Part shown: one piece after another, positions 1,813 through 36,958 of the stretch
How the letters are laid out: every line of letters starts with the position of its first letter
How positions within the stretch are numbered: position 1 is the first letter of the stretch
From: Candidatus Yanofskybacteria bacterium RIFCSPHIGHO2_12_FULL_45_19b
GTDB lineage: Bacteria; Patescibacteriota; Minisyncoccia; 2-02-FULL-40-12; IGHO2-12-FULL-4
Direction of reading: 5' to 3'
Length of the DNA stretch: 64,000 nt
Assembly: GCA_001794605.1 (NCBI GenBank)
Contig: MGKD01000013.1
Coordinates: 13,463 to 77,462, forward strand
Notes under the pieces: generated by a model
What the model was told of the DNA's origin: nothing
What the model saw: only the letters and a program-made list of their open reading frames with translations
The model's database searches: none
Translations under genes and position numbers: made by a program

Positions 1813-2469
1813 ATGACTAATAATAAAAAAATTAATTTCTGGGTGATCTTACTACTACTGTTGGCCTGGCCGGTTAGTGCTTCGGAGGTCACCGGTGGAC
1901 TTAGTAATCAGGGAGTAGTGCCAATCCTCCCTAGTGGAGTAGTCGCCACCAAGACTGGTGATCAACAAATCACCATCAGTTGGAATGCGGTGGTCGGCGT
2001 AGATGGTTATCGGATTTATCAAAAAAAAGACAGTGCTGATTTTCAGCTGTTGGTTGATAATCTGACCAACCTCCAGTATGTCAACTCAAGCTTAGCTAAT
2101 GGTAATTACAGTTATCGGGTGCAGTCATTTAAAGGGAGTTTAAGTCCGAGTGTAGATAATACTGCTCCTACCGCACCCATTACTATCAATTTTGTTGTTT
2201 CTACTCCGACTCCCACCCCAACACCGTCGGGTGGCGGTGGTGGAGGTGGCGGGGGGGGCGGCTCAGTATCTACACCCACTCCCACTCCCACAGGCACGCC
2301 TACATTGAATCAAGGTAATTCCAATGGGGACGGTAAAGTAGATGTGTTAGACTTCAATACCTTGGTTACTAATTGGGGAGCCACTGGTAGTGGTAATTCG
2401 GCAGACTTTAACAGTGATGGTACGGTTGATATTTTAGACTTCAACATCCTAATGAATAATTGGAGTTAA
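1813..2469 (+). CDS. secreted FN3-like domain protein with Pro/Thr-Gly11 linker and C-terminal type-I dockerin (two Ca-binding repeats)
   Basis: Signal peptide MTNNKKINFWVILLLLLAWPVSA. FN3-like ITISWNAVVGVDGYRIYQK. Dockerin repeats NGDGKVDVLDFNTLVTNW and NSDGTVDILDFNILMNNW. Confidence 0.75.
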   Translation: MTNNKKINFWVILLLLLAWPVSASEVTGGLSNQGVVPILPSGVVATKTGDQQITISWNAVVGVDGYRIYQKKDSADFQLLVDNLTNLQYVNSSLANGNYSYRVQSFKGSLSPSVDNTAPTAPITINFVVSTPTPTPTPSGGGGGGGGGGGSVSTPTPTPTGTPTLNQGNSNGDGKVDVLDFNTLVTNWGATGSGNSADFNSDGTVDILDFNILMNNWS

Positions 2470-2480
2470 TAAATCTAAAT

Positions 2481-3242
2481 ATGATGAAAAAAACTATTCT
2501 CGCAATTATTACTGTCGTTGGTTTTGGTCTATCCGCTGGGCCAGCGCTGGCCGCTACGCTTACGCTGTCGCCAACTAGTATTACCGTGAAGGCCGGGCAG
2601 TCTTTTACTGTAGCAGTTATGGTTGATCCACAAGGCGGGAAAGATTCAACTATCAAGACTGTACTGAGTTTCCCCGCTGATATGCTAAGTGTGCAGGCTT
2701 TCACGCAAAACACTGGCTGGTTGTCACTCACTCAACCTGGCTATGATCTAACAGATAATACCAATGGTAAGTTAGTTAAAACGGCTGGCTTCCCGGGTGG
2801 TATTACTAATACTACTACCTTCGGTACAGTGAACTTTTTGGCTAAAAAAAGTGGTAGTGCCAATATCCAAGTAACCGCTGAATCATTGGTTTATGACAAT
2901 ACCAATAAAAATGTTTTAGGATCGGTACTTGGCCAAACCGTGGTAACAATTAATCCGGCGGCTACTCCAACTCCGACCGTCACTAAAGCAGTTACACCAG
3001 CACCAACCAAGGTTGGTGGGCAGGTAACCGCTAGCCCGACGCCAACCGTATCGGAGGAGGCAGGCGTGTTAACCCCCACCCCCACTCCAGATACGCTAAG
3101 CGATAGTACTACGGCGCGTTTGGGTGCGGCGTTAACGCTGGGTACCAACAAGTGGCCAGTAGCAGTTTTGGTACTTGCCATTTTAGCTGGGTTGCTGGCT
3201 TGGTTAATCTGGGGCCTGCGCCGACGCAAAAACAACCTATAG
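2481..3242 (+). CDS. membrane-anchored cohesin-like domain protein (PT-rich linker, C-terminal TM helix and RRRKNN stop-transfer)
   Basis: ATG at 2481 with signal peptide MMKKTILAIITVVGFGLSAGPALA. Cohesin-like beta-sandwich pattern (ITVKAGQSFTVAVMV...LSFPADMLSV...GTVNFLAKKSGSANIQV). PTPTP linker. C-terminal hydrophobic helix followed by RRRK. Confidence 0.6.
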   Translation: MMKKTILAIITVVGFGLSAGPALAATLTLSPTSITVKAGQSFTVAVMVDPQGGKDSTIKTVLSFPADMLSVQAFTQNTGWLSLTQPGYDLTDNTNGKLVKTAGFPGGITNTTTFGTVNFLAKKSGSANIQVTAESLVYDNTNKNVLGSVLGQTVVTINPAATPTPTVTKAVTPAPTKVGGQVTASPTPTVSEEAGVLTPTPTPDTLSDSTTARLGAALTLGTNKWPVAVLVLAILAGLLAWLIWGLRRRKNNL

Positions 3243-3262: not shown

Positions 3263-3287
3263 AACCTTGAGGTTTAACCTCAGGGTT
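3263..3287. repeat. REP-like imperfect palindrome (degenerate copy of the RAYT-associated hairpin)
   Basis: aaccttgaggtt-t-aacctcagggtt; one mismatch in the stem. Same core as the 4694 and 5380 copies. Confidence 0.6.
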
Positions 3288-3380
3288 AGTAACCCGTCCC
3301 CCACTTTTGCCCTCCTACGCGAAGAGAATATGCTTCGGGGGGTATACAAAAAGTAGGGGACGAGTGTTATCATTTAGTTC

Positions 3381-3701
3381 ATGATTAACTATGAACAATT
3401 TAGCCAGACTGAACTACAAGTAGCAGAAGTTAAAACTGCTGAACGGGTGACTGGTTCAGACAAATTACTGAAATTAATGATTAGTTTGGGTGAGGAGGAG
3501 CGCCAGATTATCGCTGGTATCGGCAAAGCCTACGAACCAGAAAGTTTGATTGGCAAACAGATTATTATCGTTGCCAATCTGGAACCACGCCAACTGATGG
3601 GCTTAGAAAGCCAGGGCATGTTGCTAGCGGCTGACTCCGAAGCTGGTCCGGTGCTTTTGATGCCAGACAAACCAGTCTCTCCTGGTAGTAAAATTAAATG
3701 A
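3381..3701 (+). CDS. csaA: tRNA-binding protein (CsaA/Trbp111-like OB-fold, MetRS C-terminal-like)
   Basis: LQVAEVKTAERVTGSDKLLKLMISLGEEERQIIAGIGKAYEPESLIGKQIIIVANLEPRQLMG matches the tRNA-binding EMAP/CsaA domain. Confidence 0.8.
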   Translation: MINYEQFSQTELQVAEVKTAERVTGSDKLLKLMISLGEEERQIIAGIGKAYEPESLIGKQIIIVANLEPRQLMGLESQGMLLAADSEAGPVLLMPDKPVSPGSKIK

Positions 3702-4684
3702 AGCGAGTTATTTTAATTGTTCTGATTTGTCTAGCTATTGCAGCTGGAGGGTTTTTGCTCTTTACTCATCAAGACTTTTCTTTTAAGGGTGGAGAGGGAT
3801 TTTCAATTTTTTCTACCCCGACCCCGATGAACACTATCCTAATTTTTACTGGTGATATTATGCTGGGTCGGAGTGTGGAGATTAAATTAAATAAATATGG
3901 TGCTGGTGATTATTTCTTTCCCTTTGCGCGCATCAGCGAGTGGTTAAATTCGGCGGATTTAACTTTTGCTAATTTAGAGGGACCAGTCTCGGACCGGGGC
4001 ATAAAAGTGGGCAGTATCTACTCTTTTCGCTTCAATCCGTTAGTGACAAAAGCTTTAAAAAAGGCCGGTTTTGATGTGGTTTCCTTGGCCAATAACCATA
4101 TTTGGGACTATGGTCCACAGGCTTTTTTAGACACTCTGGATAATTTAAAAACTGGTGGAATTGATTATGTCGGCGCCGGTAAAAATTTCACTGAGGCGCA
4201 TGGCGGCCTAACCAAAGAAATCAACGGTACTCGGATAACTTTCTTAGCTTATACCCCGCTGTTAGCAAAAAGTTTGAATGCTACGGCTGACCATTTTGGT
4301 ATTAATGTTTTAGATTTAGACCAGATGGACTTGGATATTAAATCTGCCAAAGCGTGCAGTGATTTAGTGGTGGTGTCGTTTCATTTTGGCGAAGAGTACA
4401 AACCTAAGCATAATCAATTTCAAGAAACCGTCGCCTATCGCGCCGTTGATGCCGGAGCAGATTTAATTATCGGTCACCATCCGCACGTGGCAGAGGATTT
4501 GGAACAATACCAAGGCAAATGGATTGCCTACAGCCTGGGAAATTTTATTTTTGATCAATACTTTTCTCCCGAAACCATGCAAGGGTTGGTTTTGCGAGTA
4601 ACATTAAGTGGCAAAACTATCTCCAAAGTAGAACCACTCACTGTGCAACTAAATAGCAACTTCCAACCAGCCTTGATCGACTAA
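3698..4684 (+). CDS. CapA-family (PGA_cap) metallophosphatase-like capsule/poly-gamma-glutamate synthesis protein
   Basis: N-terminal TM. GDIMLGR motif, NNH and HHPH metal-binding motifs. Start overlaps the upstream gene by 4 nt. Confidence 0.7.
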   Translation: MKRVILIVLICLAIAAGGFLLFTHQDFSFKGGEGFSIFSTPTPMNTILIFTGDIMLGRSVEIKLNKYGAGDYFFPFARISEWLNSADLTFANLEGPVSDRGIKVGSIYSFRFNPLVTKALKKAGFDVVSLANNHIWDYGPQAFLDTLDNLKTGGIDYVGAGKNFTEAHGGLTKEINGTRITFLAYTPLLAKSLNATADHFGINVLDLDQMDLDIKSAKACSDLVVVSFHFGEEYKPKHNQFQETVAYRAVDAGADLIIGHHPHVAEDLEQYQGKWIAYSLGNFIFDQYFSPETMQGLVLRVTLSGKTISKVEPLTVQLNSNFQPALID

Positions 4685-4693
4685 AAAAAGCGC

Positions 4694-4722
4694 CCTACCT
4701 TGAGGTTTAACCTCAAGGTAGG
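4694..4722. repeat. REP hairpin (14-bp perfect stem, 1-nt loop) cctaccttgaggtt-t-aacctcaaggtagg; contains GTAG
   Basis: Read directly. The reverse complement of the left arm equals the right arm. Confidence 0.85.
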
Positions 4723-4734
4723 TATACTTCTGAT

Positions 4735-5394
4735 ATGGCTAATCGAAAAATTAGTTTTATCAACGATAACTATTATCATATTTATAACCGTGGTATTGAT
4801 AAGCGGATTATCTTTGAGAATGACCACGATTTTAAAAGATTTCAAGAAAGTCTACGGCTATTCAATTCTCCTAATAGTATCTGGCTAGCTGATGCTAACC
4901 AGAAAACTGAGGTTAAACCTCAAGACCGTCTGGTAGATATAGTGTGCTACTGTCTAATGCCCAATCATTTCCATCTTTTACTTAAGCAACGAGTTGATAG
5001 TGGTATCCCAAATTTCATGCGAAAATTGGGCACTGGGTATTCGTTATATTTTAATATGCGCAAAGAACGAAGTGGTAGTTTATTTCAAGGTACCTACAAA
5101 GCCAAGCTAGTGACAGATGATAATTACCTGACTCATCTTTCTAGATATATTCACATGAATCCGGTTGAGCTGGTAGATAGTAATTGGAAAGTGGCCGGTA
5201 TAAAAAACAAAAGAACGGCATTTGATTTTCTCGATAAGTTTCAGTGGTCAAGTTATCCTGATTTTATATCAGAAGTCAGTGGCAAGATAATTAGTAGAAG
5301 TATTTTGCATGAAATGTTTACGCCCAGTAGCTACAAGAAATTCATCGAGAGCTGGCTAATTAAAGATTTAGAGCAAATTGCCCAACTACCTTGA
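4735..5394 (+). CDS. REP-associated tyrosine transposase (IS200/IS605-like Y1 HUH transposase, RAYT)
   Basis: HUH motif MPNHFHLLL. Candidate catalytic Tyr in LFQGTYKA. C-terminal YIHMNPVELV...WSSY signature of the transposase IS200-like family. Confidence 0.75.
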   Translation: MANRKISFINDNYYHIYNRGIDKRIIFENDHDFKRFQESLRLFNSPNSIWLADANQKTEVKPQDRLVDIVCYCLMPNHFHLLLKQRVDSGIPNFMRKLGTGYSLYFNMRKERSGSLFQGTYKAKLVTDDNYLTHLSRYIHMNPVELVDSNWKVAGIKNKRTAFDFLDKFQWSSYPDFISEVSGKIISRSILHEMFTPSSYKKFIESWLIKDLEQIAQLP

Positions 5395-5418
5395 GGTTAA
5401 ACCTCAAGGTAGTTGGGC
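5380..5418. repeat. REP hairpin (19-bp perfect stem, 1-nt loop) gcccaactaccttgaggtt-a-aacctcaaggtagttgggc
   Basis: Read directly. Shares the ctaccttgaggtt core with the 4694 copy. Confidence 0.85.
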
Positions 5419-5420
5419 AG

Positions 5421-5524
5421 AATGGTTTTGGAGGTAACATTGGGCAGTGAAAACCATAACTAAGGTTGAGCCATTTACCGTGCGACTGAATGGCGATTTT
5501 CAACCAGCAGCTCTGGCCAACTAG
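5421..5524 (+). pseudogene. remnant duplicate of the CapA 3' end (frameshifted), ending ...VKTITKVEPFTVRLNGDFQPAALAN*
   Basis: Nucleotide and protein similarity to 4580-4684 (GKTISKVEPLTVQLNSNFQPALID*). One-nt indel upstream. Lies immediately after the right REP. Confidence 0.55.
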
Positions 5525-5617
5525 AGTGGCTTGTGATATACTACTTTTACCCCTGGACCAAGCTCGGTCATGGAAGGGGGTGTACGAGCAACCTTTTGAA
5601 TCATGAGGGTTAGTTAA

Positions 5618-5971
5618 ATGACGATTGGAATGGCGAGAATTGCTGTGGTTGAACTGCCGGCGAATCCAAGAAACAAGGGCACGGAGTTTATCAACAAGCC
5701 CATCAACGAGTTGACCTCGGAGGTCGTCGAACTCATGATGAGGTTGGGGTGTCGAACCCCCTTGGAGTTGGTCGATAAGGCCGTGGAGTCGAAGGTGGCT
5801 TCGTTGGCCGCGGTCAACTCTCTCAAGAGCAGTGTGGAGTCGCTCCACCCATTCAATCTTGTTGTAAGAGTTCTTCCGGAACTCCGCGAGGAGATTGAGG
5901 GCAGAGTTCTTCGTCTGCGTTCACAGCAGATCAGGGCGAGCCATGGAGCCCACCCGGTGCGGAGGGTGTAG
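5618..5971 (+). CDS. hypothetical protein, GC3-rich orphan ORF (foreign codon usage)
   Basis: 117-aa ORF with strongly G/C-ending codons, unlike the A/T-ending codons of neighbours. TGaTATACT extended -10-like box at 5534-5542. Strong terminator downstream. Confidence 0.35.
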   Translation: MTIGMARIAVVELPANPRNKGTEFINKPINELTSEVVELMMRLGCRTPLELVDKAVESKVASLAAVNSLKSSVESLHPFNLVVRVLPELREEIEGRVLRLRSQQIRASHGAHPVRRV

Positions 5972-6068
5972 ATATCCCATTCTCTCTGTTCAAAAGCATC
6001 AGCCTATCGTGCAGTTCTTTTTTATTATCTCTCGGTCTGAGAATTGGGCGGCTTAAACCCGCCTAGTC

Positions 6069-6104
6069 GACCGCCCTAGATGTAAGGGCGGTCTTTATTT
6101 TTTT
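6069..6104 (+). terminator. rho-independent terminator gaccgccct-agatgta-agggcggtc + TTTATTTTTTT
   Basis: 9-bp GC-rich stem, 7-nt loop, T-tract. Confidence 0.75.
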
Positions 6105-6133
6105 ATGGTTATTTGTTAAGTAAGGTCTTATCT

Positions 6134-6694
6134 ATGCAGGAAGATCTAGATTTAGCAAAAATCACCCTGGATGCTTTTCACTCGATTGTCTATTTATCTT
6201 TTCTCGTTAAAGACAGTGGTTTGCGTGAGCGGCTAATTGCTAGAGCGAAACCACTGCTAGATCGTCCGGGGCGATCGGAATTTGAGCGAGTTAAAATGCT
6301 AGAGCAAACCGTCGCTTGCCTCCTCGATTATTTGGAACTCCTGGTCTATCTAAAGTCTGCTCCGCTAGGGGGTTTGCTGGAGACCCAAAAACAGGTACTG
6401 AAATTAAAATTGATTATTGTTAGCAAGGAGAAGAATGCTCATCCTAAAAAAGTTTCTAAACCAGAAGAGGTTCAAATTGAAACTGAAAAAGGAAATGACC
6501 AAATTTTGGATGAAAAAATTATTGAACTAGTTAAGACCAGAGATGGTTGTAACTTTAAGGATATTTCTGGCGAGCTAGGTGGGGAGTATTCCAAACGGAC
6601 TTTGATCCGTTATATCAACAAACTATTGGCGCGCGGTTTAATCAAGAAAAAGCTGGGGCTGGATACGAGGTTTCCTAGCTATACGGTTGAGTGA
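6134..6694 (+). CDS. putative DNA-binding protein with C-terminal winged-helix HTH
   Basis: C-terminus NFKDISGELGGEYSKRTLIRYINKLLARGLIKKK is wHTH-like. N-terminus is alpha-helical. Start ambiguous between TTG 6113 and ATG 6134. Confidence 0.45.
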   Translation: MQEDLDLAKITLDAFHSIVYLSFLVKDSGLRERLIARAKPLLDRPGRSEFERVKMLEQTVACLLDYLELLVYLKSAPLGGLLETQKQVLKLKLIIVSKEKNAHPKKVSKPEEVQIETEKGNDQILDEKIIELVKTRDGCNFKDISGELGGEYSKRTLIRYINKLLARGLIKKKLGLDTRFPSYTVE

Positions 6695-6741
6695 TGGTGC
6701 CAGGCATGGTGCCAGCTAGCTGGCACCATGCCTGGCACCAT
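6694..6741. repeat. 48-bp perfect palindrome atggtgccaggcatggtgccagcta|gctggcaccatgcctggcaccat
   Basis: The reverse complement of the left half equals the right half. Begins at the stop codon of the wHTH gene. Confidence 0.9.
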
Positions 6742-6833
6742 GAAGTTGTGCTTATTTAAATAGGACATTCATGGTGCCAGCTAAATCTGTTGCTGAATCT
6801 GGCTTTACGCTTGGCACCATGCTTGGCACCATG
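6694..6833. promoter_or_regulatory. array of seven copies of the 10-mer core GGCACCATG/CATGGTGCC in both orientations (iteron/operator-like)
   Basis: Copies at 6694, 6705, 6720, 6732, 6770, 6811 and 6823. The last two are tandem ttggcaccatg. Confidence 0.5.
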
Positions 6834-7067
6834 AAGACCGTGTGGTTTTCATTTTTCTGACATAATTTTACGGTGCTATCCGTCAGCCACTGGATGGGGA
6901 AATATTGCCCCAAGAGTTTTTGTGAAAGATGAAAAAGTCTTAATTTAAGGCGGTTATCCACAATTGGCTATTGTCGGTGCGGGTGAATAAAATTATAATG
7001 GTTTTAACGGTTGTTAGTAATCCGTTTTGTTCCTTGTTGGTAAAGGATTCCTTATTTCTCTGATGGT

Positions 7068-11046: not shown

Positions 11047-11090
11047 TCTTAGTCTCGTCTGCTTCTTACTGCGCGTAAGTTCGGACAACC

Positions 11091-11116
11091 AAAAACCGCC
11101 TTCGGGCGGTTTTTGG
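11091..11116 (+). terminator. rho-independent terminator aaaaaccgcc-ttcg-ggcggttttt
   Basis: GC stem with TTCG tetraloop, flanked by an A-run and a T-run (potentially bidirectional). Confidence 0.8.
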
Positions 11117-11155
11117 TTGGTTGAAAACGGATTAGAATTAATCTATGATAAGAAA

Positions 11156-24201: not shown

Positions 24202-25260
24202 ATGGCCGGGATTTTGATTATTACTCAAAAAGTTGACCAGGATGAGCAGTTGCTCAGTTTTTTTATTGGTTGGTTGTCTGTTTTTGCTCAACATTTTGAA
24301 CGGGTTACAGTGGGTTGTTTGCAAAAAGGAGAGTTTAGTTTGTCGAGTAATGTTTCGGTGGTTAGTTTTGGAAAGGGGGCCGGGCTTTCTAAGTGGCGCC
24401 AGCTAGTTAATTTTTACAAATTAATTATTGGCAGACAACATGAGTATCAGTCAGTATTTGTGCACATGAATCCAATTTGGGTAATTTTAGGGGGTTGGTG
24501 GTGGCGGATTAAGGGCAAAAAAATTTCCCTTTGGTATGCCCACGGTACAGTTTCTTGGAAGTTGCGACTAGCAGAGAAGTTTGCGCATGTTATTTTCACT
24601 TCAACTAGTAAGGGCTGTCGGATTAAGAGTAATAAACTGCAAATAGTGGGCCAAGGTATTGATACTGACTATTTCAAAGTTGGTTCGCAACCAGATTCCT
24701 TTTCTCATACTCCTCGGCTGGTGAGCATTGGTCGCATTGCGCCTTCTAAGGATTACGAAACCTTAATAGTGGCGGTTAAGCAGTTGGTAGCGCAGGGCCA
24801 GGCTTTGTCAGTAGAGATTGTTGGCGGAATCGGTGTGCCGGAAGACCAGGCTTATCTGGCAAAATTGCAGGCATTAGTTAGGGATAACCAGCTGGAACAA
24901 ATTTTTGTTTTTAAAGGAGCGCTACCCAATAAGACAATTTTGCCAATCCTGCAATCCGCTGATATTTTCTTGAATATGGGGCAAACTGGTAGTTTGGATA
25001 AGGCGATACTGGAGGCGATGGCTTGTGGTACGCCAGTTTTGAGTTGTAATGAGGCACTAGCGGAGGTCTTAGGGGTGGAAAACAGTCATTTGATGTATCC
25101 CAAAAAGGACCCTCAGGTTCTGGCTCAGAAAATAAGAATGATTTTACAACTTACACCAGAAGAACGACAGAAACTGTCAGCTAAGTTACGTGAAGTCGTG
25201 GTCTCAAATCATAATCTGCCGAATTTGATCAAAAAAATTAGTACAACACTAGCCACGTAA
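24202..25260 (+). CDS. glycosyltransferase family 4 (GT-B)
   Basis: LDKAILEAMACGTPVLSCNEALAEVLG. Confidence 0.7.
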   Translation: MAGILIITQKVDQDEQLLSFFIGWLSVFAQHFERVTVGCLQKGEFSLSSNVSVVSFGKGAGLSKWRQLVNFYKLIIGRQHEYQSVFVHMNPIWVILGGWWWRIKGKKISLWYAHGTVSWKLRLAEKFAHVIFTSTSKGCRIKSNKLQIVGQGIDTDYFKVGSQPDSFSHTPRLVSIGRIAPSKDYETLIVAVKQLVAQGQALSVEIVGGIGVPEDQAYLAKLQALVRDNQLEQIFVFKGALPNKTILPILQSADIFLNMGQTGSLDKAILEAMACGTPVLSCNEALAEVLGVENSHLMYPKKDPQVLAQKIRMILQLTPEERQKLSAKLREVVVSNHNLPNLIKKISTTLAT

Positions 25261-35752: not shown

Positions 35753-36958
35753 ATGAAAAAATACTTAAAATTACCGCCCGGAGTTAATCCTAATAAGAAT
35801 AATATTTTTCCAGTTAACCTACCCTATTATTTACTTACCCATAGCGCACACCTTGCTGATGATAAAGAGCAGAAGTGGGTGGTTTTTTGGGGAGTGCCAT
35901 TCCGACAACTACCGACTATCTATGCTGATGAAAAAGAGTTCATTCGGCAGGCCAACCTTTGTCTAGATTATGTACGACGAGGGTGCGTAGGTTGTAAACT
36001 ATTCTACAAAACTCATCCCAATGAAACCGACGAACAAACCTCACTTGATTTAACGGGGTTTCAAATTTTGTCACAGAAAGAAGTGGCGGAATTTTTTGTC
36101 TTGAAAAACTTTCACAAAATAAGACAGGTTTTTTCTACTTACTCTAGCGCGGCGATGACTGCTTATAAATTGGGTCTCGACGCTCACATTTTTCTGCCCT
36201 TGGTGGAACCGTCTTTGACCGAGCAGAATCGCAATGGCAACCGCGAATATTATAAGCATATGCCACCAGAATTCTTTATTGACAAGTTTAGTGCTTCTCC
36301 TAAAACCAATAAACTCAATATTCCTCAACAGCCCGATGCGGTTTTAAGGGAAAATCTTTTGGTGTTGCTAAAAGACCGCCCGGCTCAGACTATTTGGTTT
36401 ATTTTGGGAGATCCGGGTTCACTGACCTCGGTTATTTTACTGGCACGATTTATAAAAGAACTTGCTCCGCAGGCTGCTATCGGTTTAATCATTGAACGAC
36501 ATCATCGTTGGCAGGTAATGAATTTGGCAGAGGTAAAAACTTTTTTTGATCATATGCTGGTTTATCCGCGCTGGCTACCATCGTTGCGCCCAAATAAAAT
36601 TTGGGCGCAACTTAAAACTGCCTGGGCCTTACGTCGAGCACCGATTGCTCCGAACGATATAATCTTTGGTTTTAACTATACGGCCTTTGTGGAAAACTGT
36701 CTGCTCACCTACTTCCCCAGCAACCTAAAAGTGGCTTTTGTAAAAAAAGAAACCCTGGAGTTTTGTTATGGCTCAAAAGAAAAAGCCTTTTTTCAAAACT
36801 ACTTTTCACGCATTGGCCATCGTTTTTATGCCAGAGTAATCCAGCCTATTTTGGGACTGTACCCCACGGTTTTTTTAGAGGATCCGGTGCGAGTGGCTAA
36901 CTTTGACCGCTATCTTATGCCAATTAACGACCTGTATGATCAGGTGTATGTATATTAG
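35753..36958 (+). CDS. hypothetical protein with HP motif; paralog of 51714-52886; candidate CMP-sugar (sialyl/Kdo-type) glycosyltransferase
   Basis: Shares CLDY, THPNE/PHPDE, FDLDL.GF, LGL.AH.F and FVENC/FIENC blocks with the 51714 protein. Confidence 0.35.
   Translation: MKKYLKLPPGVNPNKNNIFPVNLPYYLLTHSAHLADDKEQKWVVFWGVPFRQLPTIYADEKEFIRQANLCLDYVRRGCVGCKLFYKTHPNETDEQTSLDLTGFQILSQKEVAEFFVLKNFHKIRQVFSTYSSAAMTAYKLGLDAHIFLPLVEPSLTEQNRNGNREYYKHMPPEFFIDKFSASPKTNKLNIPQQPDAVLRENLLVLLKDRPAQTIWFILGDPGSLTSVILLARFIKELAPQAAIGLIIERHHRWQVMNLAEVKTFFDHMLVYPRWLPSLRPNKIWAQLKTAWALRRAPIAPNDIIFGFNYTAFVENCLLTYFPSNLKVAFVKKETLEFCYGSKEKAFFQNYFSRIGHRFYARVIQPILGLYPTVFLEDPVRVANFDRYLMPINDLYDQVYVY

Follow-up and report, generated by a model that had tools for sequence, protein, structure and literature searches.

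The DNA considered here, which we call the window, is a stretch of 64,000 nucleotides (nt) from Candidatus Yanofskybacteria bacterium RIFCSPHIGHO2_12_FULL_45_19b (contig MGKD01000013.1, positions 13,463 to 77,462), and within it we have tried to understand one small unit: a single gene for a Y1 tyrosine transposase-like protein of the HUH type, together with four copies of a palindrome that stand before it, inside it, across its end and some way upstream. An original prediction had read the gene as a REP-associated tyrosine transposase (RAYT) with cognate repetitive extragenic palindromic (REP) hairpins. How much of that reading stands, and what might an enzyme of this kind be doing with hairpins of its own? 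The layout is REPtron-like, that is, a single Y1 gene with its cognate hairpins in inverted orientation, and the features on which the argument depends are given here with the neighbouring genes last.

4694-4722, no strand: left hairpin, perfect palindrome CCTACCTTGAGGTT T AACCTCAAGGTAGG, 14-nt arms, loop T
4735-5394, + strand: Y1 HUH tyrosine transposase-like gene, 219 amino acids, class 2, resembling subclass 2.1
4907-4924, no strand: internal palindrome, CTGAGGTT A AACCTCAAG, in frame, encoding TEVKPQD (residues 58-64)
5379-5419, no strand: right hairpin, perfect palindrome TGCCCAACTACCTTGAGGTT A AACCTCAAGGTAGTTGGGCA, 20-nt arms, loop A
3264-3286, no strand: solo palindrome, AACCTTGAGGTT T AACCTCAGGGTT, one mismatch, 21 nt 3' of the stop of the open reading frame (ORF) 2460-3242
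4700-4728, + strand: promoter-like site TTGAGG-17-TATACT, a consensus match only
4587-4684, + strand: capA 'type 1' 3' end, the last 98 nt of the intact capA and the upstream copy of a direct repeat, diverged, that lies on both sides of the Y1 unit
5423-5525, + strand: remnant of a capA 'type 2' 3' end, frameshifted, MVLEVTLGS(K)TITKVEPFTVRLNGDFQPAALAN followed by a stop
3698-4684, + strand: capA (PGA_cap/CapA gene), intact, directly 5' of the Y1 unit
3381-3701, + strand: gene with a tRNA_bind domain, between the solo palindrome and capA
2460-3242, + strand: ORF 5' of the solo palindrome

The four palindromes lie where the original prediction had put them to within 1 nt (it gave the right hairpin as 5380-5418), and they keep close company: the 17-nt core TTGAGGTTNAACCTCAA, with at most three mismatches allowed, occurs at four sites only in the 64 kb; these fall within 2.2 kb, and the remaining 62 kb is free of the core. 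By shuffling one would expect 0.35 such sites, and 0 of 100 shuffles attained four. The left hairpin begins 10 nt past the capA stop and finishes 12 nt short of the Y1 start codon. The left arm of the right hairpin encodes the C-terminus of the Y1 protein (IAQLP) and holds the TGA of its ORF, and the hairpin thus probably furnishes the gene with both its stop codon and a 3' stem. Folded as DNA, the right hairpin is the most stable (-23.0 kcal/mol, z -12), followed by the left (-13.7 kcal/mol, z -7.2), the solo copy (-8.3 kcal/mol, z -3.3) and the internal copy (-4.2 kcal/mol, z -2.7); Rfam has no match to the hairpins. The two flanking copies (4695-4721 and 5386-5412), each of 27 nt, show 100% complementarity, their sole difference being the central base, T on the left and A on the right, and because that base is the only mark of orientation that a palindrome possesses, the two are in inverted orientation. 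Four independent assemblies of metagenomes contain the locus (L001-L003 and L014, 96.6-99.9% identical), which is therefore no assembly artefact. The database gene call for the Y1 ORF (P0001) has 221 residues and ends in QLPWG (window 5392-5400), the gene caller having read the TGA in the right hairpin as tryptophan under an alternative genetic code and placed the stop at the TAA of the loop; the other long ORFs of the window are open under table 11.

ORF 4735-5394 is a class-2 Y1 HUH enzyme, RAYT-like. The original prediction had recognized a Y1 transposase from the HUH motif and the YIHMNP and WSSY signatures, and this is borne out at each point: a hidden Markov model search against Pfam Y1_Tnp (PF01797) gives 35.4 bits for a cut-off of 23, and in a 25-sequence family alignment, NHFH (H78 and H80), SRYIHMNP (Y138, H140 and N142) and WSSY (W171 and S172) are invariant columns, with the catalytic Tyr138 present throughout. 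The NCBIfam equivalog for RAYTs (NF047646, REP_Tyr_transpos) is matched at 44.9 bits, under its cut-off of 80. Sequence searches of the PDB gave marginal matches only (ISDra2 TnpA, E 0.04), so a comparison of folds was required. The AlphaFold2 model (predicted local distance difference test, pLDDT, of 88.7) has an all-helical tail, and Foldseek places it nearest to 4ER8, the E. coli RAYT with its REP hairpin (E 1.6e-6; 10% identity in the structural alignment), with the ISDra2 and IS608 TnpA proteins next. A Pfam scan of the tail (residues 145-219, E <= 0.01, no profile-profile comparison made) found no helix-turn-helix or DnaA_C match. The protein has more than 7,900 homologues in a large protein database, and the named ones come nearly all from metagenome-assembled genomes (MAGs) of Patescibacteria and Omnitrophota, where the annotation is merely "transposase."

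Quentin et al. (2018; PMC6006769) sorted the TnpA_Y1 family into classes and subclasses, and in their scheme (Table 1) Y---NP is the tyrosine motif of class 2, whereas IS200 transposases have Y---Q. Subclass 2.1 has the motifs NH[YF]H, FQ (or W[EQ]), Y[IV]HLNP and an SS motif in the tail, with a median length of ~238 residues (PMC6006769). The window protein has NHFH, LFQG, YIHMNP (YIHLNP in the family consensus) and WSSY, and lengths in its family run from 219 to 247 residues. Judged by motifs alone, the enzyme fits subclass 2.1, which is Group 1 of the RAYTs of Bertels and includes most TIRYTs, and not the E. coli-type subclass 2.2 or the IS200 subclass 1.1.

Do enzymes of this kind keep hairpins elsewhere? 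From GTDB genomes, we drew 80 related loci, of which 76 had genes that could be tested, and counted a gene as paired if a perfect hairpin lay within 200 nt of its start and another at its stop, the two sharing at least 12 nt; controls were positions shifted by 2-4 kb. By this measure, 43 of the 76 relatives have matching flanking hairpins, and none of the 364 control positions does. The hairpin sequence varies from locus to locus, and even paralogues within one MAG (L078 and L094) each have their own. Copies beyond a few hundred nucleotides from the gene are uncommon (~12 of 49 loci, mostly a single copy). REPIN-like inverted doublets occur in L098, L027, L032 and L078. Two neighbouring observations belong here. 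At L066 (3614-5355), two tandem Y1 genes have their own hairpins, GCAGGAGCTAAGCTCCTGC and TCGTTAGCTAAGCTAACGA, with a common apex, AGCTAAGCT. At three Daviesbacteria-type loci (L053, L063 and L071; ~5936-5980 and 6659-6703), the Y1 gene stands between direct repeats that run ~20 nt past the hairpin (...TTGTATTGACACCTGCGGATAT), the extension holding a TTGACA hexamer; the unit that is repeated in this subgroup therefore exceeds the hairpin in length.

The original prediction mentioned the copy inside the gene as something incidental. It is not, in that internal copies recur across the family: of the 38 loci whose flanking hairpin could be defined, 15 carry an internal copy at zero to two mismatches, and the other 23 have nothing above background, with no intermediates. 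These copies keep to two narrow positions: in 10 loci, including the window, they precede the HUH codon by 56-103 nt, and in 5 loci they follow it by 212-224 nt; in the window, the copy lies in a loop of low pLDDT in the AlphaFold2 model, between the helix at residues 30-42 and the strand at 67-74 that leads to HUH. It is found at the homologous position in L095 (82% amino acid identity), L098 (65%) and L100 (62%). In all four, the basal TTGAGG/CCTCAA is kept, and the apex differs: the window and L095 have GTT-N-AAC, L098 has A-CAC-T and L100 has AT-T-AT. Left, internal and right copies nonetheless match one another within each of these loci, and between the window and L095 each flanking hairpin shows double changes that compensate each other (CTAC/GTAG vs. 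CAAC/GTTG, and CCTTGAGG/CCTCAAGG vs. CCCTGAGG/CCTCAGGG). The left, internal and right copies at one locus therefore evolve in concert. In-frame REPs inside tnpA_REP genes have been described for subclass 2.4, where they lie between HuH and Y (PMC6006769).

The hairpins are also found without the gene. An exact scan of Joint Genome Institute (JGI) metagenomes with the 21-nt core returned, besides the window locus, ten loci (L004-L013, L005 and L010 being identical in sequence) with no Y1 gene in the DNA fetched, and in five of them the core lies in frame within a long ORF, on low-GC contigs of the type of the Candidate Phyla Radiation (CPR).

L007:9739-9759: in-frame core, polA-like ORF, read SLRLNLK
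L009:1628-1648: in-frame core, polA-like ORF, read ALRFNLK
L008:7784-7804: in-frame core, mnmA-like ORF
L011:2699-2719: in-frame core, mnmA-like ORF
L004:2593-2613: in-frame core, 428-residue ORF

The orthologous copies in L007 and L009 differ by compensatory changes in the outer stem, and in L008 the palindrome is partly duplicated, within a segment of 18 residues that the L011 protein does not have. L001 and L096 both keep the solo palindrome in place, and in L096, which is nearer to the window than L095 is and has no Y1 gene behind capA, it is a perfect palindrome. Hairpins with the same core, away from Y1 genes or within other genes without breaking the frame, thus behave as small mobile palindromes. 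We had also taken the combination, on unrelated contigs, of a common 21-nt core and differing outer stems as a sign of a "mobile core," and have dropped the idea, the search pattern itself having selected the core. Di Nocera et al. (2013; PMC3733652) reported REPs within genes (noting genes of replication and repair), stop codons provided by the termini of REPs, and units like REPtrons where the species has no REP family.

In what sense, then, is this a REP/RAYT system? The original reading is supported by a class-2 Y1 enzyme, cognate inverted hairpins and a pairing of the two that is family-wide, but the GT[AG]G foot and a dispersed REP family are both missing. The "embedded GTAG" that had been noted does exist, but it is a stretch of the stem, which reads 5'-CTAC...GTAG-3', and it is not conserved, for which reasons it is not the defining 5' GT[AG]G foot; it is missing in the solo and internal copies, in the left hairpin of L095 (CAAC...GTTG), in L098 and L100, and in most relatives. 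As for numbers, a count over the 64 kb gives four local copies, with no sign of a genome-wide REP family. In JGI metagenomes, the exact scan with the 21-nt core gave no further copy that could be assigned to the source organism, and the 23-nt palindrome, searched for exactly in GTDB representative genomes, had zero matches, which means either that the source species is unrepresented there or that the palindrome is specific to the species. No dispersed family of high copy number (tens to hundreds) was seen, a statement whose scope is the 64 kb sampled and the scans with the exact core. There is one Y1 gene in the 64 kb, and tblastn found no second gene or fragment there; a weak tblastn signal at 24451-24546, in an unrelated ORF of 352 residues, was considered as a second Y1 gene and set aside as a chance match to VHMNP. 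The unit is, in short, a REPtron-like pairing of a Y1 gene and hairpins without a GT[AG]G foot or visible REP proliferation, and its enzyme fits, by its motifs, a subclass for which no hairpins have been reported.

How long has the gene been where it is? Between the window and L095, the ratio of nonsynonymous to synonymous substitution rates (dN/dS) is 0.084 for Y1 at a dS of 0.99 and 0.086 for capA at a dS of 1.25. Since the two genes are alike in both respects, Y1 would have stood beside capA since the lineages split, under purifying selection. On such comparisons of sequence, the Y1 gene appears to be inherited vertically and to be selected, which is the behaviour of a RAYT and not that of an insertion sequence (IS). 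CapA of the window is identical to a protein of Candidatus Yanofskybacteria MAGs.

The DNA behind the right hairpin, which the original prediction passed over, holds a displaced capA 3' end. The remnant at 5423-5525 is 103 nt long, begins 3 nt past the hairpin, is 73-76% identical to 4587-4684, and has one frameshift and a stop codon that aligns with the capA stop. With the frame corrected, the proportions of synonymous and nonsynonymous differences (pS and pN) from the functional capA end are 0.72 and 0.18. Because the differences are mainly synonymous, the remnant is no decayed local duplicate; it is the end of a functional capA from another lineage. The type 1 end is also found in L095 and L096, and L095 has the Y1 unit without the remnant. 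The same order of gene end, Y1 unit and diverged gene end recurs at two unrelated loci. In L066, a copy of the end of a membrane protein gene (its last 25 codons, encoding 25 identical amino acids, pS 0.53, pN 0.02) lies between the tandem Y1 genes; in L030, the gene ends in ...VLLSGHRAKIEEWKK (pS 0.86, pN 0.15), a C-terminal end that we take to resemble that of TrmD. These remnants begin 3-7 nt past the right hairpin in the window and L066 and lie downstream of Y1 in L030; with 3 of 52 testable loci having one, they are recurrent and no rule. A target-site duplication was considered for the pair 4587-4684 and 5423-5525 and is out, the differences being mostly synonymous in the window, L066 and L030 alike.

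One CapA allele (P0121, run SRR3990167) is the same as that of the window for 294 residues, with two differences, and then has a third, unrelated C-terminus of 35 residues, WLALAVTVSKEGVGEVKRLPFIINAQYQPLLDEKK. The switch follows ...ETMQ, which is the point at which the remnant at 5423 starts. The 3' side of the right hairpin seems to be a recombination joint at which the end of a foreign orthologous gene was captured. A hairpin AAACCA...TGGTTT (4570-4612) was tried as a cleavage signal at the capA junction and is not significant (z -0.28). The capA of L096 (6815-6850; P0244) has an in-frame insertion of 11 residues, CPPSRQASEGQAC, in place of QGK, in a CapA otherwise ~93% identical, and the idea that CPPSRQASEGQAC represents a palindromic insertion failed for want of a significant fold (z -0.55).

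The positions of the hairpins also suggest roles in the expression of the gene. The promoter-like site has its -35 hexamer within the left hairpin and a -10 hexamer that ends 7 nt 5' of the ATG, and L095 has a like layout (TTGAGG ... TAAACT); going by sequence, the overlap of the left hairpin with the -35 element of a likely promoter could permit autoregulation of a leaderless transcript. As for termination, it is the right hairpin that scores as terminator-like, with a short T-run behind it; no T-tract follows the left or the solo hairpin. The original prediction suggested that copies at the 3' ends of genes could be terminators: three of the four copies are at gene 3' ends, but a terminator role is weak, a T-run being present after the right hairpin only.

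We put the probability at about two in three that this is a REPtron-like unit in which a resident class-2 Y1 enzyme is paired with its own hairpin and acts on hairpins. In such a unit, a dimer of the enzyme would bind hairpins in single-stranded DNA, for example at replication forks, and Tyr138 would cut and rejoin the DNA beside the hairpin through a 5'-phosphotyrosine, with the metal bound by HUH, as in IS608 TnpA and the E. coli RAYT. At the right hairpin, the cut would be expected 3-7 nt to its 3' side. Hairpins would then be copied or replaced, mainly in cis, which would keep the left, internal and right copies of a locus the same even as their sequence drifts from lineage to lineage. Now and then, a copy might be deposited elsewhere, and only insertions in frame or between genes would survive.

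Several things weigh against this, and we would rather give them together. We know of no biochemical activity for this clade of Y1 enzymes. Since the hairpins have no GT[AG]G guide, recognition must differ from that of E. coli-type RAYTs. Proliferation is weak if there is any, with four copies here and distant ones rare in relatives. The Y1 gene of L095 is thrown out of frame by one base, close to its start and within an A-run, so Y1 is not indispensable, unless the frameshift is an error of assembly in the A-run, and in L096 the Y1 unit is missing altogether. In a comparison of loop lengths (26 genes past motif filters), the loci with an internal copy had loops no longer than those without, and simple insertion is therefore not established. 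Finally, perfect palindromes could equally be sites for a dimeric protein that binds double-stranded DNA.

Might the unit instead be an ordinary mobile element? It could be imagined as an autonomous IS200-like element of ~730 bp whose ends are the flanking palindromes, which moves by peel-and-paste and whose extra hairpins are footprints or decayed ends. The presence of the unit after capA in the window and L095 and its absence from the closer relative L096 would fit, as would hairpins largely restricted to the flanks of the gene, the many close homologues on contigs of 1.4-2 kb (as is common for repeats), and the order of gene end, unit and gene end in the window, L066 and L030, which points to recombination or insertion at the unit. 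We nevertheless consider this unlikely. The enzyme has the Y---NP of class 2 and not the Y---Q of IS200 (PMC6006769 Table 1); Y1 and capA have equal dS and dN/dS between the window and L095, which speaks for long vertical residence; there is a single copy in 64 kb; both ends are the same perfect palindrome, where distinct imperfect left and right hairpins would be expected; solo and in-frame hairpins exist without the gene; no tnpB-like ORF is adjacent; and the flanking repeats, with pS far above pN, are no target duplications. Less likely again, in our estimation, is that the palindromes are cis-regulatory or terminator elements, or operators of a dimeric binder of double-stranded DNA, with their nearness to a possibly inactive Y1 relic an accident. 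Such an explanation can call on the three copies of four at gene 3' ends, the terminator-like right hairpin, the overlap of the left one with a promoter-like site, the perfect dyad symmetry that is typical of operators and the frameshifted gene of L095. It has to contend with the association with Y1 genes (43 of 76 vs. 0 of 364), a specific hairpin sequence for each paralogue, copies at two fixed positions in coding sequence, three copies that change in concert, left and solo hairpins without a T-tract, strong purifying selection on Y1 and the same core in frame in unrelated housekeeping genes.

A narrower alternative concerns only the copies within genes, which would be no insertions at all but conserved peptide motifs (E-x-x-P-Q and LRxNLK) that are palindromic by chance. 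Loops that are not longer where the internal copy is present speak for it, as does E[DV]xPQ at the same place in all eight closest homologues. Even so, we give it very little credence. The internal DNA tracks its own noncoding flanks even where the peptide changes (EVKPQ, EDTPQ, EDNPQ), the MnmA of L008 carries its palindrome in a segment of 18 residues missing from L011, the internal site is a surface loop of low confidence in the model, and copies in different genes use different reading frames (LEVKPQ vs. LRFNLK). Coming back to the REPtron-like unit, one may go further and suppose both that the in-frame internal hairpin is an ancestral working part, continually rewritten by the enzyme along with the flanks, and that the 3' side of the right hairpin is a joint made by Y1 that captures DNA of other genomes. 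We offer this combined idea tentatively, and the odds, as we see them, are against it.

How does all this compare with systems already described? The E. coli REPtron (TnpA_REP, YafM; 4ER8; subclass 2.2) shares with the window unit a Y1 HUH fold, Y---NP, inverted cognate hairpins around a single gene (one in the 64 kb) and, as it appears, vertical inheritance and selection of that gene (compare Bertels 2017, PMC5581495). Unlike those of E. coli, the hairpins here are perfect, with a loop of 1-3 nt, no bulge and no 5' GT[AG]G guide, and there are four copies only, all local; the protein is ~55 residues longer than the E. coli RAYT, has a helical WSSY tail and falls below the NCBIfam RAYT cut-off. 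The resemblance to subclass 2.1, Group 1 and the TIRYTs extends to motifs, a length of ~220-245 residues, low copy number, a wide and patchy distribution and few flanking repeats. For RAYT Group 1, flanking 16-mers occur ~12 times per replicon (Bertels et al. 2017); no REP-like structures were found beside subclass 2.1 genes (PMC6006769), and the TIRYTs of Di Nocera et al. (2013; PMC3733652) are bounded by terminal inverted repeats that carry GGGGWSAS. Unlike these published examples, the window gene and most of its CPR relatives are flanked by cognate perfect hairpins without GGGGWSAS. A C-terminal domain like a helix-turn-helix (Bac_DnaA_C, HTH_23 or HTH_28) also goes with this group, and the Pfam scan of residues 145-219 described above gave no match of that kind.

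Subclass 2.4, of Cyanobacteria and Bacteroidetes (PMC6006769), also has an in-frame palindrome in a peripheral loop of the transposase gene product, and symmetric feet. Its motifs are different (NH[IFV]H, WQ and YIxNNP, where the window protein has FQ and YIHMNP); its insertions lie between HuH and Y, and those described here before HuH or after the Y helix; and its double foot is 5'-GT[AG]G...C[TC]AC-3', whereas here the order is 5'-CTAC...GTAG-3' and is not conserved. With IS200/IS605 elements (IS608, ISDra2; subclass 1.1), the unit shares the catalytic fold, hairpins beside both ends of the gene and, in all likelihood, a chemistry on single-stranded DNA. Those elements have Y---Q and a core-only protein of ~150 residues, unlike the YIHMNP, 219 residues and 75-residue tail found here, and they come in multiple near-identical copies with distinct imperfect hairpins, external cleavage sites and often tnpB, none of which was seen here. 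The in-frame palindromes in housekeeping genes (here polA-like and mnmA-like) and the termini that give a stop (here TGA) recall the intragenic REPs of Di Nocera (2013). Unlike those, and unlike Rickettsia palindromic elements, the units here are perfect palindromes of 21-45 nt in Patescibacteria. The Rickettsia elements are ~100-150 bp long and have, to our knowledge, no cognate transposase.

RAYT/REP systems have so far been characterized almost solely in Proteobacteria, and a literature search of incomplete coverage turned up no paper that ties RAYTs to CPR bacteria. Across this locus and 80 related ones, a very large branch of Patescibacteria and Omnitrophota (over 7,900 database proteins) turns out to be regularly accompanied by perfect palindromes specific to the locus. 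The largest subclass of class 2 (2.1, or Group 1), whose motifs the window enzyme has, had been reported as free of hairpins. The interest lies in the regularities of the family (concerted triplets, two intragenic sites, copies in housekeeping genes and foreign gene ends) more than in any single locus. In-frame palindromes offer one tangible origin for the peptide insertions that housekeeping proteins of CPR bacteria show here, and the concerted triplets and foreign gene ends are handles by which the function of class-2 Y1 enzymes, still an open matter even for the E. coli RAYT, might be tested. If the internal hairpin is indeed rewritten and the joint is indeed made by Y1, this would explain the foreign 3' ends at three unrelated loci (capA, the membrane protein gene and the TrmD-like gene) and would make these enzymes agents of hairpin-directed recombination between genomes, and of in-frame protein insertions, in CPR bacteria.

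A few features of the surrounding DNA remain. Beyond the capA remnant, we compared window 5526-6060 with L095:7017-7600 and L096:7021-7483. The ORF at 5618-5971 (117 residues) is homologous to one of 155 residues in L095 and not recognizably to one of 96 residues in L096, and homology among the three picks up again at a common GC-rich hairpin region (window ~6020-6093); since it resumes only there, the stretch from capA to that point behaves as a variable island. Some way further on, between the convergent ORFs 6113-6694 (+) and 6752-6961 (-), lies a perfect loopless palindrome of 48 nt (6694-6741), ATGGTGCCAGGCATGGTGCCAGC joined to GCTGGCACCATGCCTGGCACCAT, composed of a tandem 11-12-nt unit and its inverse; its sequence is unrelated to the Y1 hairpins, and Rfam returned only spurious matches to miRNA models for it. 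Two further perfect hairpins, both terminator-like and both unrelated to the Y1 palindrome, are found at 11086-11119 (CAACCAAAAACCGCC-TTCG-GGCGGTTTTTGGTTG), 40 nt past the stop of an ORF of 1217 residues, and at 36583-36611 (GTTGCGCCCAAAT-AAA-ATTTGGGCGCAAC).

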